Part shown: in pieces, positions 33,223 through 52,776 of the stretch
Position numbering within the stretch: the stretch's first letter is position 1
How the letters are laid out: each line of letters begins with the position of its first letter
DNA from: an uncultured Gemmatimonadales bacterium
GTDB taxonomy: Bacteria > Gemmatimonadota > Gemmatimonadetes > Gemmatimonadales > Gemmatimonadaceae
Direction: 5' to 3'
NCBI GenBank assembly: GCA_963701965.1
Contig: OY969695.1
Location: 2,752,001-2,816,000 of the forward strand
Length of the DNA: 64,000 nt
The notes under the pieces: model-generated
Database searches by the model: none
What the model saw: only the letters and a program-made list of their open reading frames with translations
Told to the model about the DNA's origin: nothing
Translations under genes and position numbers: made by a program

Positions 33223-34280
33223 TGACTACTCGCGCCGCAGACAGACCACGAGACGCAGCGCCGGGCGCGGCGAACGGCAGGGAGTTGCAGGACCGACTCC
33301 TACCGGGCGTTTCGCGCACGTTTGCGCTGACGATCCCGCAACTTCCGGGCGCGCTCCGCCCGGTCGTGACCAACGCGTACCTGCTCTGCCGGACGGCGGA
33401 CACGATCGAAGACGAAGTGGCGTTGTCCCCCGAACAAAAGCAGGAGTTCTCGGACCGGTTCATCGAGGTCGTGGCCGGGCGCGCGTCGGCGGAGGCGTTC
33501 GCGCGGGATCTCGAGCCGCTGTTGTCGCCGGCGACCCTGGATGCCGAACGGACATTGGTGCGCGAGACCGAGGCGGTCGTGGGTGTCACGGCGGAATTCA
33601 CGCCGCGGCAGCGCGCGGCGCTGGAGCGGTGCGTCCGCATCATGTGCAATGGGATGCCCCGATTTCAGCGCAACGCGGATCTCGGCGGGCTGGCGGACGT
33701 CCGGGAGTTGGACTGTTACTGCTATTACGTTGCCGGGGTGGTCGGCGAGATGTTGACGGAGCTGTTTTGCGCGCATTCACCCGCGATCGAGGCGCGGCGG
33801 GAGCGGTTGGCGCCGTTGGCGACGTCGTTCGGACAAGGGCTGCAGATGACGAACATCATCAAGGACACCTGGGACGACCGGCGGCGGGGCGTGTGTTGGC
33901 TGCCCCGCGATATTTTCGGCCGGCAGGGACTGGAGTTGGAAACGCTCGCTCCGGGCGGCGACACGGGTGCTCTGGCCGCCGCCATGGACGAGATGATCGC
34001 GATCGCGCACGGGCATTTGCGCGACGCGCTTACATATACGTTGACCATTCCCCAACGGGAAACCGGTATCCGGCGTTTTCTGTTGTGGGCCCTCGGGTTG
34101 GCGGTGCTCACGCTTCGGAAAGTCCATCGCAACCCGGCGTTCCTCGCCGGACACAGTGTCAAGGTTTCGCGTCGCACGGTCCGCGGGACGGTCCTCGCGA
34201 CGTCGTTGTGGGTCCGGAATGATTGGGTGCTCACCCGACTGATGCAGCTGGCGACGCACTCACTCCCAAGGCTGTCATGA
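33222..34280 (+). CDS. Squalene synthase (single-enzyme SQS type)
   Basis: VSRTFALTI, AYLLCRTADTIED, YCYYVAGVVG and GLQMTNIIKD. Confidence 0.85.
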   Translation: MTTRAADRPRDAAPGAANGRELQDRLLPGVSRTFALTIPQLPGALRPVVTNAYLLCRTADTIEDEVALSPEQKQEFSDRFIEVVAGRASAEAFARDLEPLLSPATLDAERTLVRETEAVVGVTAEFTPRQRAALERCVRIMCNGMPRFQRNADLGGLADVRELDCYCYYVAGVVGEMLTELFCAHSPAIEARRERLAPLATSFGQGLQMTNIIKDTWDDRRRGVCWLPRDIFGRQGLELETLAPGGDTGALAAAMDEMIAIAHGHLRDALTYTLTIPQRETGIRRFLLWALGLAVLTLRKVHRNPAFLAGHSVKVSRRTVRGTVLATSLWVRNDWVLTRLMQLATHSLPRLS

Positions 34281-36235
34281 GCTCAACTCTCGTCAGTGTA
34301 GTCGATGTTCCATTACGGCCCGATCCCGACGCTCTGGAAGCCGCGATCGCCCGGGGGTCCGACGCGCTGAGACAGGCGCAGGCCCGCGACGGGTACTGGC
34401 GGTTCGACCTGGAAGCCGACTGCAGCATCACCGCCGAATACGTCCTCATGATGCACTTCATGGACGAAATCGACGGACCGCTCGAGGGGAAGCTGGCGGC
34501 GCATCTCCGGGCCAAGCAAGAGAAACACGGTGGGTGGGGGCTGTATCCCGGCAGCGACTGCGATCTCAGTTGCTCGGTGAAGGCGTACTATGCGCTCAAG
34601 CTCGCGGGCGACGACGCGAACGCGGAGCACATGGTCCGCGCGCGCAAAGCGATCCTCGCCCGCGGCGGCGCGGCGCGGGCCAATGTGTTCACGCGCATCA
34701 CGCTGGCGCTGTTCGAGCAGATTCCGTGGCGGGGGTGTCCGTTCCTGCCGGTCGAGATCGTGCTCCTGCCGCGCTGGTTCCCGTTCCACCTCACCAAGGT
34801 CTCGTACTGGTCGCGCACCGTGATGGTGCCGCTGGCCATTCTGTGTAGCCTCAAGCGCCGGGCGCGGAATCCGCGGCGCGTGAACGTGCGGGAGCTGTTC
34901 GTCACGTCGCCCGAACTGGAAAAAGAATACTTTCCGGCGCGCTCGACGCTGAGTCGCGCGTTCGCGGCGCTCGATGCGCTGGGGCGGCGGAGCGAACCGC
35001 GCATCCCGGATGCGGCGCGGCGCCGGGCGCTGCTGCGCGCGACCCGTTGGTTCACGGCGCGGCTCAACGGCACGGACGGACTGGGGGGCATCTTCCCCGC
35101 GATGGTCAATGCCTATGAGGCGTTGGCCGCGCTCGGCTACGGCTACGATCACCCGTACCGGGTGCAGGCGCGCGAAGCGCTGCGCAAGCTGCTCGTGGTC
35201 GAGGGCGACAGGGCGTATTGTCAACCGTGCGTGTCGCCCGTGTGGGACACCGCGCTGGCGACGCTCGCGCTCCAGGAGGTCGGCGACCAGGCTTCGACGG
35301 CGTCGGCCGGCCGCGCGCTCGACTGGATGGTCTCCAAGCAGCTCCGCGACGATGAGCCGGGAGATTGGCGGGCGATCCGGCCCGGCGTGCACGGAGGCGG
35401 TTGGGCGTTTCAATTCGCGAATCCGCACTATCCGGATCTCGACGACACCGCCGCGGTCGCGTGGGCGCTTTCGCGCGCCAGTCGGCCGGAACGCTATCGC
35501 CGGTCAATGGCGTCGGCCGTCGAATGGATCGTCGGGATGCAGAGCCGGAATGGCGGCTTCGGCGCGTTCGACGCCGACAACACGGCGCGGTATCTCAATC
35601 AGATCCCGTTCGCCGACCATGGCGCGCTGCTCGATCCGCCGACGAGCAATGTGAGCGCGCGGTGCGCGCTCGCGCTGGCCCGGCACGGACGGCCGGAACA
35701 CCGGTTCGCGTTGACGCGCTGTCTGGCGTTCGTGCGGAGCGAGCAGGAGCCGGCCGGATCCTGGTTCGGACAATGGGGAACGAACTACGTGTATGGCACG
35801 TGGTCGGTGCTCACGGCGCTCGAATTGGCCGGCGGCGCCGCCAATGCGCCGATCATCGCCCGCGCGGCCGCGTGGCTCAAGGCGACGCAGAACCCCGACG
35901 GTGGCTGGGGCGAGGGATGCGCCAGCTACTACGACAATGGCTGCGTCTCCCGTCGCGATCCGAGCACGGCCTGCCAGACGGCATGGGCGGTCCTCGGTCT
36001 GCTGGCGGCCGGGGAGGTCCGGTCGGCCGAAGTGCGCCGCGGCATCGCGTATCTGTTGGCGCGCCAAGACCGGGACGGCGACGGGCTGTGGGATGATCCC
36101 TGGTTCAACGCGCCCGGGTTTCCGCGCGTGTTCTATCTCAAGTATCACGGATACGCGAAGTACTTTCCGCTCTGGGCCCTGGCCCGATATCGCGCGCTGT
36201 CGCCGGGCGCGGTCGAGGAAGGACGTCGGGCGTGA
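34277..36235 (+). CDS. shc: Squalene-hopene cyclase
   Basis: YPDLDDTA catalytic motif, QW repeats, SPVWDT and GFPRVFYLKYHGY. Confidence 0.97.
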   Translation: MSSTLVSVVDVPLRPDPDALEAAIARGSDALRQAQARDGYWRFDLEADCSITAEYVLMMHFMDEIDGPLEGKLAAHLRAKQEKHGGWGLYPGSDCDLSCSVKAYYALKLAGDDANAEHMVRARKAILARGGAARANVFTRITLALFEQIPWRGCPFLPVEIVLLPRWFPFHLTKVSYWSRTVMVPLAILCSLKRRARNPRRVNVRELFVTSPELEKEYFPARSTLSRAFAALDALGRRSEPRIPDAARRRALLRATRWFTARLNGTDGLGGIFPAMVNAYEALAALGYGYDHPYRVQAREALRKLLVVEGDRAYCQPCVSPVWDTALATLALQEVGDQASTASAGRALDWMVSKQLRDDEPGDWRAIRPGVHGGGWAFQFANPHYPDLDDTAAVAWALSRASRPERYRRSMASAVEWIVGMQSRNGGFGAFDADNTARYLNQIPFADHGALLDPPTSNVSARCALALARHGRPEHRFALTRCLAFVRSEQEPAGSWFGQWGTNYVYGTWSVLTALELAGGAANAPIIARAAAWLKATQNPDGGWGEGCASYYDNGCVSRRDPSTACQTAWAVLGLLAAGEVRSAEVRRGIAYLLARQDRDGDGLWDDPWFNAPGFPRVFYLKYHGYAKYFPLWALARYRALSPGAVEEGRRA

Positions 36236-36957
36236 CCGCCGCGGAGACGGCGCCGACCGTGGCGACGGTGGGCGTCGTCGCCGCGCTCGCCGCGGAAGCG
36301 CGGTGGCTGGACGGCGTGCGCGGACCGCCGGACTCGCCGCTCCGCGTCCTGGTGAGCGGCGTCGGCGCGCGCGCGGCCCAACGCGCCGCCGAGCGCCTGC
36401 TGGCCGACGGCGCGCGGTCGCTCGTGAGTTGGGGCACCGCCGCTGGACTGCATCCGACGCTCGCCCCGGGCACGTTGCTCATCGCGGACCGCGTGCTGGC
36501 GGACGCCGCCGCGACGACCGCCCTCGAGCCTACCCTGGCGTGGGCCGATCGCTTGGCCACCGCGCTGCAGGGCGTGGTCCCGGTCGCCCGCGGCACGATG
36601 GCGTGCCCGCGCGCCGTGCTGCGGACCGCCGCCGACAAGAGCGCGCTGGCCCGCGCCAGCGGCGCGATCGGCGCCGACATGGAGAGCGCGGCCATCGGAC
36701 GGGTGGCCGAGGCGGCCGGTGTCGCCTGGATCGTCGTGCGCGTCGTGTCCGACGGCTGGGACGCCACGGTGCCCGAGAGCGTCGTCGCCGCGGTCGGCAA
36801 TGACGGCGCGATTCGACTCGGCCGGTTGGCGAGGGCCGTCCTCGCGCGCCCGTCCGACCTGCGGGCGTTTCCCGCGCTCGCCCGCGGTATGCGGGTCGCG
36901 GGACGGACGATGCGCCGGGCGGCGCCAGTGCTCGCCTGCGGCGGGCGGGAAGCGTGA
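36232..36957 (+). CDS. hpnG: Hopanoid-associated phosphorylase/nucleosidase HpnG
   Basis: [15 protein letters not shown] and RVVSD; immediately after shc. Confidence 0.85.
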
Positions 36958-37949
36958 TGAAGGCGCTGGTCACGGGTGCCACCGGGTTCGTTGGCGCGGC
37001 GGTCGCGCGCCGCTTGCGCGAGGCGGGACACGAGGTGCGTGCGCTCGTGCGCCCGCGCGCCGATCGCCACAATGTCGAGGGGCGGGGCATCGAGACGGTC
37101 GAGGGAGACCTGACCGATCGCGCCTCGCTCGCGCGCGCGGTGCGCGGATGTCAGGCGGTCTTTCACGTCGCGGCCGACTATCGGCTCTGGGTTCCGTCGC
37201 CTGCCGCGATGTACGCGGCCAACGTCAAGGGCACACGGTCGGTACTGCAGGCAGCCGGGGAAGCGGGCGTCGAGCGGATCGTCTACACGAGCAGCGTCGC
37301 GACCCTGGGCCTGCGCGCCGACGGCTTACCGGCCGACGAGGAAACCCCGTCGACCCTCGACGACATGATCGGTCACTACAAGCGCTCGAAGTTCCTGGCC
37401 GAGGAAGTCGTGCACACCATGGCCGCCTCCGGTACGCCGGTCGTGATCGTGAATCCCTCGACGCCCATCGGGCCGGGCGATGTGAAACCGACACCGACCG
37501 GCCGCATGATCCGGGATGCCCTGGCGGGCCGCATGCCGGCCTACGTCGATACCGGGCTCAACGTGGTGCACGTCGACGACGTAGCGACAGGGCATCTGCT
37601 CGCGTACGAGCGGGGCCAGATCGGGCGCCGTTACATCTTGGGCGGAACCGATATGACGCTCAAGGAGATTCTGACAGAGTTGGCGCACATTGCCGGCCGC
37701 CGTCCGCCACGGTGGCGGCTGCCGCAGCGGGCCCTGCTCCCCATCGCGTATCTCGCGGAAGGATGGGCGCACGTGAGCGGGCGCGAACCGTTGACCACGG
37801 TGGACGGCGTTCGCTTGTCGGCGAAGCGTATGTACTTTTCGAGTGCGAGGGCGGCACGCGAGCTGGGCTATGGAGGGGCGACGCGCGAACCTCGTCGCGC
37901 GCTCGAGGATGCGGCCGAGTGGTTTCGGGGGGCGAGCGTATGGACCTGA
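36954..37949 (+). CDS. hpnA: Hopanoid-associated NAD-dependent epimerase/dehydratase HpnA
   Basis: [23 protein letters not shown] and GDVKPTPTG. Confidence 0.92.
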
Positions 37950-38896
37950 TTCTGGCGCAACCCCGTGGCTTCTGTGCGGGCGTCGTTCGCGCGATCGAAA
38001 TCGTCGAGCGCACGTTGGAGCTCCACGGGGCGCCCGTGTATGTCCTGCACGAGATCGTGCACAATCGCCGCGTCGTCGAGGATCTGGAGCAGCGGGGCGC
38101 GATCTTCGTCGAGGAGATGAGTCAGGTGCCAACCGGGGCGATCTTGATCTTCAGTGCCCACGGCGTCGCCCGTAAAGTCGAACACGCCGCCGCGGCCCGT
38201 GGGCTGCGCGTGATCAATGCCACCTGTCCTCTGGTCACCAAAGTCCATCTCCAGGCCCAGCGCTACGCGCGCGAGGGCCGCGAGCTGATCATCGTGGGGC
38301 ACGCTGGCCACATCGAGGTCGCCGGAACTGTCGGCCAGGCGGATGGCCCGGTCCACGTCCTGTGCAGTCCAAGAGAAGTGGATGAGCTCGTCGTGACGGA
38401 TCCGGACCGACTGGCGTACGTGACCCAAACGACCTTGAGCATCGACGACACCCGCGAAGTGGTCGATGCGCTCAAGCGGCGGTTTCCGTCGATCAAGGGC
38501 CCCGGACTCGACGACATCTGCTACGCGACCCAGAACCGGCAAAATGCGGTGCGGGCGCTCGCCGTGCGGGCCCATGTCCTGCTGGTGGTCGGTGCAAGGA
38601 ACAGCTCGAACTCCAACCGGCTTCGTGAAGTCGGGGCGCATCACGGAGTACCTTCCTATCTGATCGAGGAAGCGGGCGATATCGATCCCGCTTGGCTTCC
38701 GACAAACGGCGGGCGGGTGGCGATCACGGCTGGGGCGTCGACGCCGGAGGTGTTGGTGGATCAGGTGATCGAGCGGTTGCGAGGGCTCGGCATCCGATCG
38801 GTGTCGACGATCGATGGGGTGAAGGAAACGACGACTTTTCGGCTGCCGGCGGAGCTCGCGCTCCCGGCGACCGGTGATCTCGAGGAATCGGCCTGA
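37940..38896 (+). CDS. ispH: 4-hydroxy-3-methylbut-2-enyl diphosphate reductase
   Basis: [33 protein letters not shown] and NSSNS. Confidence 0.96.
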
Positions 38897-40032
38897 TGGG
38901 TATTCCGTTTTCGGCGCAGGCGCGCATTGCGCGCTATGTCCTGGGGAAAAAGCTCTCGGGACAGAAGCGCTTCCCGCTCGTGCTCATGCTGGAGCCGCTC
39001 TTCCAGTGCAACCTGGAATGCTCGGGCTGCGGCAAGATCGCGTACTCCAACGACATTCTGCGGCGGCGGCTGACGGTCGACGAGTGTCTGGCCGCGGTCG
39101 ACGAATGCGGCGCACCCGTCGTCGCGATCCCCGGTGGGGAGCCGCTGATCCACAAAGACATGCCGGAGATCGTGGCCAAGATCCTGGCCCGCGGCAAGCT
39201 CGTGTCGCTGTGCACGAACGCGATCCTGCTGGCGAAGCGCCTCGACGAGTTCACGCCGTCCAAGTACCTGATGTTCTCGGTGCATCTGGATGGCATGCAA
39301 GAGCGCCACGACGCGTCGGTGTGTCGGGACGGGGTGTTCGAGAAAGCGGTGACCGCGATCCGGCTGGCGCGGCGGCGCGGGTTCCGCGTCTCGATCAACG
39401 CGACGTTGTTCCAGGGCGAGGATCCCGAGAAGGTCGCGACGTTTCTGGACTTTGTCACGACAGAGTTGGGCGTCGAGGGCATCACGCTGTCGCCAGGGTA
39501 CAGCTACGAGAAGGCGCCGCGCCACGACGTCTTCTTGGGGCGGAACGAGAGCAAGAAGTTGTTCCGCGAGATCTTCAAGCGGGGCAAGGACAAAGGCTGG
39601 CCGTTGACGGACTCGTCGTTGTTCCTCGATTTCCTCGCGGGGAATCAGCCGTACGAATGCACGCCGTGGAGCACGCCGACCCGGAACGTGTTCGGCTGGC
39701 AGAAGCCGTGCTATCTCCTCGTGAACGAGGGGTACGCGCCGTCGTTCCAAGCGCTCATGGACGAGACGGAGTGGGAGCAGTACGGGACCGGCAAGAATCC
39801 CAAGTGCGACAACTGCATGGCGCACTGCGGGTACGAGGGCGCGGCGGTCGATGACGCATTCGCGCATCCGATCAAGGCGATGCTGGTGTCGCTCCGTGGG
39901 CCCAAGACCGAGGGGCCGTTCGCGCCGGATCCCGAGGTGCGCTACGCCCGGCCGGCCGGTCGTCCGCCGTTGACCGTGCTGCCGGCCGAGCCGGGCCAGC
40001 GCGCGGCCCGAGCAAAGGGCAACTCCAACTGA
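38896..40032 (+). CDS. hpnH: Adenosylhopane-forming radical SAM HpnH
   Basis: PLVLMLEPLFQCNLECSGCGK and CMAHCGYE. Confidence 0.95.
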   Translation: MGIPFSAQARIARYVLGKKLSGQKRFPLVLMLEPLFQCNLECSGCGKIAYSNDILRRRLTVDECLAAVDECGAPVVAIPGGEPLIHKDMPEIVAKILARGKLVSLCTNAILLAKRLDEFTPSKYLMFSVHLDGMQERHDASVCRDGVFEKAVTAIRLARRRGFRVSINATLFQGEDPEKVATFLDFVTTELGVEGITLSPGYSYEKAPRHDVFLGRNESKKLFREIFKRGKDKGWPLTDSSLFLDFLAGNQPYECTPWSTPTRNVFGWQKPCYLLVNEGYAPSFQALMDETEWEQYGTGKNPKCDNCMAHCGYEGAAVDDAFAHPIKAMLVSLRGPKTEGPFAPDPEVRYARPAGRPPLTVLPAEPGQRAARAKGNSN

Positions 40033-41189
40033 CCGCGCCCGGCGCGGCGGCCGCCGCAGCCACGGCGGCCGCGGCGCTGTGGCTCGCGATTCTGCTGGCG
40101 CCGTGGCGGCCGTGGAGCACGGCCGAACGGCTGGATGCCAGCCGCCAACGGAGATCGGGCGGCGACGATCGCCCGGGGGATGATGATCTCTCGCAGGACC
40201 TGGGGGATGTCACGGCGCTGATCCCCGCCCGCGACGAGGGCGCCCTCATCGGGCGCACGGTGTCGGCCCTCGCCGCCCAAGGCATCAGCCGGATCATCGT
40301 GGTCGACGACCAGTCGACGGATGACACCGCCAGCGCGGCCCGTAGTGCCGGTGCCGAGGTTATCCCGGGTGAGCCTCTACCGCCGGACTGGGTCGGTAAA
40401 CTGTGGGCGCTCGAGCAGGGACGTCTGCAGGTGACCACGCCGTTGACACTGCTCGTCGACGCTGATATAGAGCTTCATAAGGGCACTATCAGAGCACTAT
40501 TGCAACAGAAGGCCAGGCGCGGTCGAGTCCAGCTCGTATCGTTGATGGCGGTGCTGGAAATGGACAATGCGTGGGAGAAGCTCCTCATCCCCGCGTTCAT
40601 CTACTTCTTCAAGCTGCTGTATCCGTTCCGCCTGGCCAACGGCAAGACCCGGCTGGTGGCCGCCGCGGCCGGGGGCTGTGTGCTCGTCGAAACGGCGGTG
40701 CTCGCGCGCATTGGCGGGTTTGGCGCGCTCCGCGGCGCCATCATCGACGATTGCACGCTCGCCCGCCGGGTCAAGGATGCTGGAGGCCGCACCTGGATCG
40801 GCCTGACGCACTCGGCGGTGAGCCGGCGCGCGATGCACGGTCTCGCGCCCATCTGGTCGATGGTCGCCCGGTCGGCGTTCGCGCAATTGCGCTATTCGAC
40901 GGCGCTCCTCGTCGCCTGCGTGGCGGTCCTGGCCTTGGCGTTCTGGGTCCCGCCCGCCGGCCTCTTCGTCCCCGCCATGCGCCTGCCTTCGGCGGTCGCG
41001 CTCGTCGCGATGATGACGACGTATCTCCCGGTCCTGCACTTCTACAGGCGTTCCCCCCTCTGGGCGCTGGCCCTGCCGGTCGCCGGAACGTTCTACGTCT
41101 TCATGACCATCACGTCGGCCGTCCGGTACTGGCGCGGCGAGCGGTCCCGGTGGAAAGGACGCGTCTACGCATCTTCCGGGGAGGGATAA
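40029..41189 (+). CDS. hpnB: Hopanoid glycosyltransferase HpnB (apparent CTG start)
   Basis: Manual in-frame extension gives LAPWRPWSTAERL and LIPARDE; also WVGKLWAL, DADI, IIDDC and WKGR. Confidence 0.85.
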   Translation: MTAPGAAAAAATAAAALWLAILLAPWRPWSTAERLDASRQRRSGGDDRPGDDDLSQDLGDVTALIPARDEGALIGRTVSALAAQGISRIIVVDDQSTDDTASAARSAGAEVIPGEPLPPDWVGKLWALEQGRLQVTTPLTLLVDADIELHKGTIRALLQQKARRGRVQLVSLMAVLEMDNAWEKLLIPAFIYFFKLLYPFRLANGKTRLVAAAAGGCVLVETAVLARIGGFGALRGAIIDDCTLARRVKDAGGRTWIGLTHSAVSRRAMHGLAPIWSMVARSAFAQLRYSTALLVACVAVLALAFWVPPAGLFVPAMRLPSAVALVAMMTTYLPVLHFYRRSPLWALALPVAGTFYVFMTITSAVRYWRGERSRWKGRVYASSGEG

Positions 41190-43326: not shown

Positions 43327-43331
43327 TGCGA

Positions 43332-43363
43332 AAAGTCTCCGAGGAGAAATCCTCGGAGACTTT
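43332..43363. terminator. Perfect 14-bp hairpin; likely bidirectional terminator between ada and the minus-strand tRNA cassette
   Basis: AAAGTCTCCGAGGA-GAAA-TCCTCGGAGACTTT. Confidence 0.85.
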
Positions 43364-43384
43364 CACTACGTGGTGGAAATTAAC

Positions 43385-43415
43385 CACGCCGGCTTGACAA
43401 GTGCCACGAATGTAT
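43385..43415 (-). repeat. Anti-anticodon box of cassette 1
   Basis: 43389-43402 is the exact reverse complement of 43505-43518 (anticodon arm); context CATAcATTCgtGGCAC-N12-CGTGG. Confidence 0.85.
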
Positions 43416-43461
43416 GCAATCGCACCGGCGCGGTCAACCGGTAGTTTGGCGCTAACTAGCG

Positions 43462-43545
43462 TGCCCGGAGCGGGACTCGAACCCGCACGACCTCGCGGTC
43501 GCCGACTTGTCAAGCCGGTGTGTCTACCAATTCCACCATCCGGGC
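43462..43545 (-). tRNA. Type II tRNA with tRNA-Leu body and GAC (Val) anticodon
   Basis: GCCCGGA TG GTGG AATTGGTAG ACAC A CCGGC TT-GAC-AA GTCGG CGACC-GCGA-GGTCG T GCGGG TTCGAGT CCCGC TCCGGGC A. Confidence 0.9.
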
Positions 43546-43654
43546 ACTCTTCGCGATGGACGGAATTGGATGTTGCGACACGAGCTTCGACTGTCGTTCG
43601 CCACTAGCTAGCGGTGGCGAATCTCGCGCTACGTGAGGCGCGCGTCGTCATCGT
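43546..43654 (-). ncRNA. Conserved structured leader of tRNA cassette 1
   Basis: Blocks shared with 52484-52588: ACGATGACG, ATTCG, CGCTAGYTAGTGGCG, CGTGTCGCARCATCCARTT and AGAGT. Confidence 0.65.
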
Positions 43655-52483: not shown

Positions 52484-52588
52484 ACGATGACGGCTAGCGG
52501 CTCGAAGTGGAGATATTCGAGTCGCTAGTTAGTGGCGTGCAATGAGTGAGCCCGTGTCGCAGCATCCAGTTTCATCCGCGTGTAGAGT
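52484..52588 (+). ncRNA. Conserved structured leader of tRNA cassette 2
   Basis: Homologous to the reverse complement of 43546-43654. Confidence 0.65.
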
Positions 52589-52672
52589 GCCCGGATGGTG
52601 GAATTGGTAGACACGGCAAACTCGCAAATTGCCGACCGTAAGGTCGTGCGGGTTCGAATCCCGCTCCGGGCA
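52589..52672 (+). tRNA. Type II tRNA with tRNA-Leu body and CGC (Ala) anticodon
   Basis: GCCCGGA TG GTGG AATTGGTAG ACAC G GCAAA CT-CGC-AA ATTGC CGACC-GTAA-GGTCG T GCGGG TTCGAAT CCCGC TCCGGGC A; A31-A39 mismatch. Confidence 0.88.
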
Positions 52673-52710
52673 CGCTAGCTAGCGCCACATTGCGCGTCGC
52701 TTCCTGGTTT

Positions 52711-52743
52711 CATAGATTCAAGGCACTTGCGAGTTTGCCGTGG
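52711..52743 (+). repeat. Anti-anticodon box of cassette 2
   Basis: 52727-52742 TTGCGAGTTTGCCGTG is the exact reverse complement of 52612-52627; context CATAgATTCaaGGCAC-N12-CGTGG. Confidence 0.88.
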
Positions 52744-52776
52744 CGAGCCCCGGGGAGAGATCCTCGGGGTTCGTTT
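52743..52776 (+). terminator. Terminator-like hairpin after cassette 2
   Basis: GCGAGCCCCGGGGA-GAGA-TCCTCGGGGTTCGT (with GU pairs) followed by a short T run. Confidence 0.7.

Follow-up and report, generated by a model that had tools for sequence, protein, structure and literature searches.

The DNA analyzed here (the window) is a stretch of 64,000 nucleotides from an uncultured Gemmatimonadales bacterium. It contains two copies of a cassette which we interpret as a toxin-antitoxin system made only of RNA and following the logic of type I systems: an inert precursor, a miscoding tRNA as toxin and an antisense RNA as antitoxin. We give this reading a probability of about 65%. The antisense leader noticed in the first-pass annotation is one part of this larger system. 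We are also inclined to see in it a new class of toxin-antitoxin formed by RNA alone. In this class a self-locking, miscoding tRNA-Leu precursor would be controlled by an antisense sRNA from the same strand, and anticodon and antisense would diversify together into groups which do not cross-react. A shut-off of transcription (by phage or stress) or the loss of the locus would then lead to proteome-wide mistranslation with an abortive or an addiction effect.

The features of copy 2 are the following, in the order of its transcription:
52487-52517, + strand: putative weak promoter of the precursor (ATGACG, 19 nt, GATATT)
52523-52534, + strand: 5' strand of the helix which closes the precursor
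52539-52550, + strand: leader segment with imperfect pairing to the anticodon arm
52551-52558, + strand: outer helix strand of the leader, antisense to the 3' side of the D stem (GACACGG)
52559-52565, + strand: 7-nt internal loop GCAGCAT, candidate site of an activating cleavage
52566-52579, + strand: inner helix strand of the leader, antisense to the D loop, the 5' side of the D stem and the acceptor 5' strand
52589-52672, + strand: tRNA with a Leu body and the Ala anticodon CGC (52623-52625)
52673-52684, + strand: 3' trailer strand of the closing helix
52690-52718, + strand: sigma-70-like promoter of the antisense RNA (TTGCGC, 17 nt, TAGATT), below the threshold of the consensus scan
52725-52742, + strand: predicted 5' end of the sRNA, antisense to its own anticodon arm
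52745-52776, + strand: terminator-like hairpin with a short T tract, missed by the strict scan

Those of copy 1 are found in the opposite strand:
43620-43651, - strand: putative weak promoter of the precursor (ATGACG, 20 nt, GAGATT)
43602-43613, - strand: 5' strand of the closing helix
43555-43595, - strand: antisense leader, with the segment against the anticodon arm (43595-43584), the outer helix (43584-43577), the loop GCAACAT (43576-43570) and the inner helix (43569-43555)
43462-43545, - strand: tRNA with a Leu body and the Val anticodon GAC
43450-43461, - strand: 3' trailer strand of the closing helix
43409-43437, - strand: sigma-70-like promoter of the antisense RNA (TTGACC, 17 nt, TACATT)
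43385-43402, - strand: predicted 5' end of the sRNA, antisense to the GAC anticodon arm
43330-43364, - strand: terminator-like hairpin, missed by the strict scan

ARAGORN and Rfam assign the two tRNAs to tRNA-Ala(CGC) (52589-52673, +) and tRNA-Val(GAC) (43461-43545, -), although each of them shows a long variable arm together with a D arm of the tRNA-Leu type. In copy 2 there is also A73, no G3:U70 pair, a mismatch A31-A39 and no encoded CCA; this tRNA is predicted to place leucine at alanine codons. At gathering score the Rfam scan of the window gave only RF00005 matches, the two cassette tRNAs and a tRNA-Phe, with no riboswitch, RtT or sRNA family. The source genome also has standard tRNA-Ala(CGC) and tRNA-Val(GAC) genes and six tRNA-Leu; many of its standard tRNAs likewise have no encoded CCA. 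A degenerate second sequence similar to tRNA-Val(GAC) is found at C1:1809504-1809573, possibly a remnant of integration. A third cassette is present in the same genome (L001, C1:2559321-2559405) and its anticodon is again CGC. Its stem differs from that of copy 2 and it has its own matching antisense, so the two are predicted not to cross-react. Genome-wide the leader motif has three occurrences, always 5' of a tRNA with a Leu body and a non-Leu anticodon; the genome pattern search did not find it at the tRNA-Leu genes, and a reversed control of the motif had no match.

Related loci were collected from relatives, GTDB contigs (at least 119), metagenomes (at least 120) and viruses, which gave at least 295 distinct Leu-type bodies. 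At least 61 bodies with non-Leu anticodons passed a cut on the antisense z-score; three planctomycete loci were set aside and eight variants picked by eye were added. The resulting family has at least 66 distinct cassettes, almost all of them from Gemmatimonadales. Among the matches listed, these 66 have 14 different anticodons and none of them is a leucine anticodon. Annotators label such genes as ordinary tRNA-Ala or tRNA-Val. The complete set of leucine identity elements (A73, A15-U48, G18G19, A20a and a long variable arm) is present in 66 of 66 bodies. The search pattern itself required A15, G18G19 and A20a; A73 and U48, which it left free, are also found in all 66, and G3:U70 in none. Leucine identity in E. 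coli is reported to depend on A73, A15-U48, G18G19 and A20a, not on the anticodon (PMC9976931); since the identity elements exclude the anticodon, these tRNAs should be substrates of LeuRS whatever anticodon they carry. The GAC copy has the ValRS determinants A73, A35 and C36, so it might be partly valylated. The bodies have a canonical 7/5 cloverleaf, a U33-type loop and strong covariation; CCA is not encoded in 65 of the 66.

The antisense changes along with the anticodon. It is not found at any of 125 ordinary tRNA-Leu genes, which came largely from scans blind to the anticodon. In a tree calculated with the anticodon arm masked there are repeated anticodon switches inside well-supported clades: one starred clade holds GAC, CGC, GCC and GTC. 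The window copies are found together in one clade. The commonest anticodons read top codons of the source genome (GCG rank 1, GCC 2, GUC 4, CGC 5 and GAC 8), a preference which is not significant against a null of codons ending in G or C (p 0.088) and is inseparable from GC bias. Phages and diverse bacteria also have many Leu-type bodies with non-Leu anticodons and no antisense (L058-L081 and a large part of L082-L200). Their anticodons are TTA, TCA, CTA, GCC, GTC and TGG; the ochre-reading TTA bodies recur in records of Alphaproteobacteria.

On the 3' side of each tRNA we find a promoter-like element, then a nearly perfect antisense of the anticodon arm and then a hairpin. In the window cassettes the antisense begins 7 nt past the -10 box. 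Strict promoter and terminator scans called only the sRNA promoter of copy 1. An ungapped antisense score, independent of the z cut which defined the family, is 24 or higher downstream of 65 of the 66 family members, 0 of 125 tRNA-Leu genes and 4 of 104 other bodies with odd anticodons. A core of 58 cassettes was defined without using the promoter: the promoter motif is present in 57, its spacer is 17–18 nt in 56, and the antisense core starts 7–8 nt past the -10 box in 50 of the 57. Among loci which had not been selected for TTGAC the promoter is present in 38/38 family members and in 0/21 Leu genes. Further downstream, 42/58 cassettes have a hairpin whose tail is rich in T, against 5/21 Leu genes. 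The duplex of sRNA and tRNA has more G-U than A-C pairs (35:14), and in 53 of the 58 cassettes the sRNA region favours its own arm over every arm with a different anticodon. For the three cassettes of the source genome the adjacent tRNA is the best target of the 62 tRNAs called by ARAGORN, with a margin of about 9 kcal/mol, and for this reason we rejected ordinary host tRNAs as targets of these sRNAs. According to folding, a full read-through transcript can also pair the antisense in cis. A peculiar case is L041 (1574-1660), adjacent to mutS, in which the variable arm and the D arm, and not the anticodon arm, are the complement of the sRNA; in its orthologues L038 and L039 the sRNA targets the anticodon.

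The promoter of the precursor would be weak and unusual, with a spacer of 19–20 nt. In the family, -10-like hexamers end 4–7 nt before the closing helix 26 times in 38 cassettes, and a hexamer of the type RTG(A/C)C lies 20 nt before the -10 box in 15/65 family members and in 1/120 tRNA-Leu genes. Since these promoter-like motifs lie upstream of the leader element, transcription probably starts upstream of it, and not downstream, as would be fatal for the lock proposed in the first-pass annotation. In copy 2 the predicted starts lie near 52523 for the precursor and near 52724 for the sRNA. A palindrome is often found in or over the spacer of the precursor promoters (52487-52534 and 43620-43651), with a long inverted repeat at 52495-52530. 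Long spacer and palindrome are reminiscent of promoters of the MerR type; a regulator may act here.

The named records which have cassettes belong almost exclusively to Gemmatimonadota, where the distribution is patchy and multicopy: a strict pattern, which misses the copy 2 tRNA at 52589 itself, gave 27 non-Leu matches in at least 22 of 401 genomes of the family. In 101 Gemmatimonadota genomes from outside the order it only matched genes with Leu anticodons. Three loci of Planctomycetota (L111, L170 and L190) have an odd-anticodon Leu-type tRNA followed by a promoter and an antisense; L190 also has an antisense leader. They were possibly transferred or are convergent; a further 350 Planctomycetota genomes had no match. 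Viral contigs gave 24 Leu-type matches with odd anticodons, of which 20 distinct ones were scored and none had the antisense. Locus L198, in a 3-kb contig from a record labelled Propionibacteriaceae, is nearly identical to a Gemmatimonadales cassette and was probably misbinned.

The cassettes are chromosomal, syntenic in several congeners, and those scanned are mostly surrounded by housekeeping or unrelated genes and not by evident mobile or defence islands. The flanking genes vary: mutS, peptidases, GMP synthase, transporters, radical SAM and others. No neighbour gene is common to the loci in the 71 of 96 flanking frames which were scanned. Because of these differences we rejected both a partner protein and a context specific for DNA repair. 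The window copies have ada and a gene of the radical SAM/HhH type as neighbours. A cluster of hopanoid type (34223-41189) lies upstream of ada and of cassette 1, with a squalene-hopene cyclase, LytB/IspH, a radical SAM protein and a glycosyltransferase.

These results bear on a different purpose for the same parts, namely regulated adaptive mistranslation. A stress switch would release a little miscoding tRNA which diversifies or slows the proteome (dormancy, persistence), without addiction or abortive effects. We consider it unlikely, although it is the strongest of the alternatives. The anatomy which it predicts is identical to that of a toxin-antitoxin system; chromosomal location, synteny in congeners and the vicinity of ada and the radical SAM/HhH gene agree with it, and a natural miscoding tRNA of unknown purpose, tRNA-ProX, does exist. 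What counts against it is that the anticodon varies freely over 14 values with the antisense tracking it, so that no particular substitution is conserved. The neighbours are also unrelated between loci, and an antisense specific for each copy fits better with independent addiction modules.

Still less probable is a tRNA which does not decode at all and acts as decoy or sensor: a sink for LeuRS or EF-Tu, a trigger of the stringent response or a bait for anticodon nucleases, its anticodon loop being just an address for the antisense. The canonical 7/5 cloverleaf with a U33-type loop, the strong covariation and the conserved Leu determinants speak against it. The absence of an encoded CCA in 65/66 bodies would suit a decoy, but it is shared by many ordinary tRNAs of the source genome; the A31-A39 mismatch of copy 2 would also suit it. 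Some allo-tRNAs found near toxin-antitoxin genes are reported not to translate, yet two of them are lethal (PMC5389517). A Leu anticodon never appears with the antisense in the 125 Leu genes, which also argues for decoding, although taken alone it is modest evidence.

We now turn to the leader, which in the toxin-antitoxin reading keeps the tRNA inert. From position 52552 leader 2 reads CCGTGTC-GCAGCAT-CCAGTTTCATC, and leader 1 runs in the minus strand from 43581 to 43555; on re-reading both copies, the sequences and positions given by the first-pass annotation turned out to be correct. Its main observation, that the leader is antisense to the 5' half of its own tRNA in both cassettes, is also borne out. 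When 1000 dinucleotide shuffles of each leader were compared with it, the duplex with tRNA positions 1–45 was equalled by 3 (copy 1), 6 (copy 2) and 7 (third cassette) of them; for the block facing the D arm alone the numbers were 50, 7 and 13. Pairing with the D arm is real but is not the limit of the interaction, which extends to the anticodon arm and to a helix closing the 5' and 3' ends.

Folded from its predicted start, each window precursor gives a single rod: D arm and anticodon arm are both taken up by leader segments, and the very beginning of the transcript is paired with the 3' trailer. The z-scores of these predicted folds are -4.2 and -4.7, to which the helices of the tRNA contribute. 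The probability of the acceptor stem is 0.00 in both precursors and forcing it costs 9.3 and 10.7 kcal/mol. Folding of the full precursor had been suggested as a check of the lock, and the rod is thus preferred to the cloverleaf by 9–11 kcal/mol in both copies. In the third cassette the lock and the cloverleaf are tied (-75.4 and -75.1). The hairpin of leader and D arm is present in folds of growing prefixes once about 15–27 nt of the tRNA have been made, before its 3' half, as judged from equilibrium folding and not from kinetics.

Comparison of sequences points in the same direction. In 24 cassettes of the window type, chosen by eye, the two leader helices are paired in 90.3% of 288 cells, against 25–42% in slid controls. 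There are 17 two-sided changes, and none of 500 shuffles came up to this result; counts of this kind are inflated by relatedness, and the main changes may represent few events. These are GUGUC to GCGUC with GACAC to GACGC, and CCAG to CCAA with CUGG to UUGG. G-U pairs again exceed A-C (18:6). The fold which RNAalifold gives for the 24 aligned rows is the cloverleaf, and 15 of its 25 pairs are compensatory, so the cloverleaf is also under selection; the lock is not the consensus fold of a sequence-based alignment. In the wider family a median of 20.8 of the first 45 tRNA nucleotides are paired with the leader, against 2.9 in ordinary Leu genes (61 and 124 precursors, p 5e-8, kin not being independent). 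The acceptor stem is lost in 42/61 family precursors, but the same happens in 60/124 ordinary Leu genes folded with 75 nt of flanking sequence, which shows how noisy the folding model is. Simple duplex z-scores of leader and D arm are noisy too, and the leader is weakly specific for its own tRNA: the median fraction of non-cognate targets beaten is 0.65–0.77, with 0.50–0.54 in controls. Overall, capture of the D arm and loss of the cloverleaf, as first proposed, are supported by folding and covariation, with the third copy as a tie. A block of RNase P cleavage would follow from the rod structure. The earlier reading did not cover why a lock is needed; in the present one, the tRNA would miscode, and it is accompanied by a predicted antisense RNA with a promoter of its own.

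The 7-nt internal loop had been described as conserved. This is true for its length within one subclass (7 nt in 22 of 24 window-type cassettes), but its sequence drifts: it is only loosely GCAGCAU, with each consensus base kept in 11–20 of 22, and in the window class it does not track the anticodon. In another subclass the loop has 2–3 nt. When the leader is removed up to the loop in silico, the median probability of the acceptor stem in 21 cassettes rises from 0.01–0.08 to 0.87–0.88. Shortening of the trailer does not unlock the precursor, so that an activation by 3' trimming, as in hok, is unsupported in silico. A cut in the loop would be sufficient, but the site is unproven since it is the loss of the outer helix that matters. 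A cleavage site appears to fit the loop better than a ligand pocket.

A subclass of 13 members (L020, L084, L097, L105, L116, L125, L142, L202, L211, L216, L229, L273 and L351) has the anticodons GCG or GTG and a leader which mostly folds on itself. This leader carries the complement of its own anticodon loop in 13/13 cases, in 11 of them within a predicted hairpin loop, and UCGCAG becomes UCACAG as the anticodon changes. It resembles a kissing lock in cis, similar to a T-box. Several of the sRNAs in this subclass also target the variable arm. The GUCGCAG of the window leaders is probably homologous to this apical loop.

The first-pass annotation had proposed that the loop binds a ligand or a protein, and we found nothing positive for it. 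As a full alternative, the leader would be a natural riboswitch acting on tRNA maturation, opened by whatever binds the loop; a speculative ligand is the host tRNA-Arg(ACG), with an anticodon loop complementary to UCGCAG. In E. coli, RNase P is indeed controlled by synthetic riboswitches placed in leaders (PMC8925977), the length of 7 is kept in 22/24 cassettes with the consensus GCAG at 15–20 of 22 per position, and in the GCG/GTG subclass UCGCAG forms an apical loop which complements the anticodon. We nevertheless regard a riboswitch as very improbable: the sequence drifts and ignores the anticodon, the loop shrinks to 2–3 nt in another subclass, no riboswitch of Rfam matches the window and the flanks scanned have no linked metabolic or regulator gene. 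Finally, homogenization of inverted repeats may occur in DNA, but we give hardly any credit to a relic of inverted partial duplications of tRNA genes (integration scars, RtT-like tails or repair of quasi-palindromes by template switching) with no RNA function, given the excess of G-U over A-C on the transcribed strand (35:14 and 18:6), the promoter placed exactly at the start of the antisense, the cassettes which target the variable arm or the D arm instead, the leader-loop codon which tracks the anticodon in 13/13 cases and the lack of any RtT match in the Rfam scan.

The toxin-antitoxin reading can be expressed as a sequence of six steps. It would start from a leucine body with a foreign anticodon, which can be read directly in the DNA; the toxin is predicted to put leucine in place of Ala, Val, Arg, Asp or Thr at abundant codons. 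According to the published identity rules LeuRS would charge it regardless of its anticodon, and therefore the mature tRNA would miscode and stop growth. In the third step, suggested by folding and covariation, the likely weak upstream promoter would give a precursor whose leader captures the 5' half of the nascent tRNA and then closes on the trailer; the inert rod would not be recognizable as a tRNA by RNase P. The cloverleaf would then be freed by refolding or by a slow cut on the 5' side, for which the single-stranded 7-nt loop is a plausible place. In the fifth step the downstream promoter, which is likely to be stronger, would produce an sRNA of roughly 50–80 nt, whose 5' end would pair with the freed anticodon arm and neutralize the tRNA. 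The last step follows type I systems by analogy: after an arrest of transcription or the loss of the cassette, the sRNA would be the first to disappear, and toxic tRNA would then arise from the precursor still in store.

In yeast, 45 of 58 variants of tRNA-Leu with non-Leu anticodons are reported to slow growth: the GCG, CUC and GCC variants could not be transformed and CGC left 54% of growth, while GGC had no growth defect (PMC11028032). A miscoding allo-tRNA is lethal to E. coli (PMC5389517). The cassette is not described in the literature searched, in which subscription journals are largely missing; the supplements of PMC5389517 may list related tRNAs. If our reading is correct, within that literature it would be the first natural tRNA toxin under antisense control and the first natural leader to control the maturation of a tRNA by refolding it. 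It would also give a purpose to one class of bacterial tRNAs with a wrong anticodon, a question which tRNA-ProX and allo-tRNAs raise as well. With a length of about 300 bp, no need for a protein and a wide range of natural specificities, the cassette allows a direct test in E. coli and possibly its use as an orthogonal growth switch.

Among the closest known systems are those of type I, in which an inert primary transcript is processed and an antisense RNA acts on the active form (PMC5416894, PMC11228461). The cassette appears to share with aapA1/IsoA1, hok/Sok and tisB/IstR-1 a transcript kept inert by closing its 5' and 3' ends, activation by processing, an antisense sRNA against a loop which becomes accessible in the active form alone and several copy-specific loci per chromosome. 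In silico it is a 5' cut which unlocks it, as in tisB, and not 3' trimming. However, the toxin of type I systems is a small protein, whereas here no toxin ORF is evident and the regulated unit is a tRNA; the 71 flanking frames scanned have no conserved protein either. The type I antitoxin is an overlapping transcript of the opposite strand, here it is an inverted copy downstream in the same strand. Membership in type I fails on these two points, the absence of a protein toxin and an antitoxin on the same strand.

The cassette would fit the definition of type VIII, an RNA toxin with an RNA antitoxin. As in CreTA and SdsR/RyeA, the two predicted RNA partners lie within 200 bp (PMC10767807, PMC8167048, PMC8501985). 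Nevertheless CreT sequesters a tRNA and CreA acts through CRISPR-Cas, whereas the toxin proposed here is itself a translating tRNA; neither cas domains in the scanned flanks and window proteins nor a CRISPR family in the Rfam scan of the window were found. SdsR and RyeA overlap on opposite strands, while the antisense of the cassette would pair directly with the anticodon arm.

Two groups of unusual tRNAs should also be compared. The tRNA-ProX of Streptomyces and Kitasatospora mixes a body and an anticodon as the cassette does, miscodes and harms E. coli; it has a Pro body, A33, A34 and a co-encoded ProRSx, and a review of it mentions no antisense or precursor control (PMC11415595). The cassette has instead a Leu body, U33, 14 anticodons, a predicted antisense control and no partner protein: A34 is found in just 2/66 of its tRNAs and there is no synthetase among the scanned neighbours. 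Allo-tRNAs resemble it in their long variable arm, their diverse non-cognate anticodons and their toxicity in E. coli, and Mukai et al. proposed links to toxin-antitoxin loci (PMC5389517). But they have an acceptor branch 8/4 or 9/3 with G73 or U73, against 7/5 and A73 in 66/66 cassettes, and Ser or Ala identity; they are found in Acidobacteria and other groups beside protein toxin-antitoxin genes. The cassette is unlike them in being of Leu type with its own RNA antitoxin.

In the specifier loop of a T-box, a codon in the leader pairs with the anticodon of a tRNA. The leaders of the GCG/GTG subclass show the same kind of pairing, but with the tRNA of their own transcript, and the cassette seems to have no gene downstream that it would regulate. 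In the synthetic RNase P riboswitches (PMC8925977) a leader structure gates the 5' maturation of a tRNA; the cassette would be a natural case of this arrangement.
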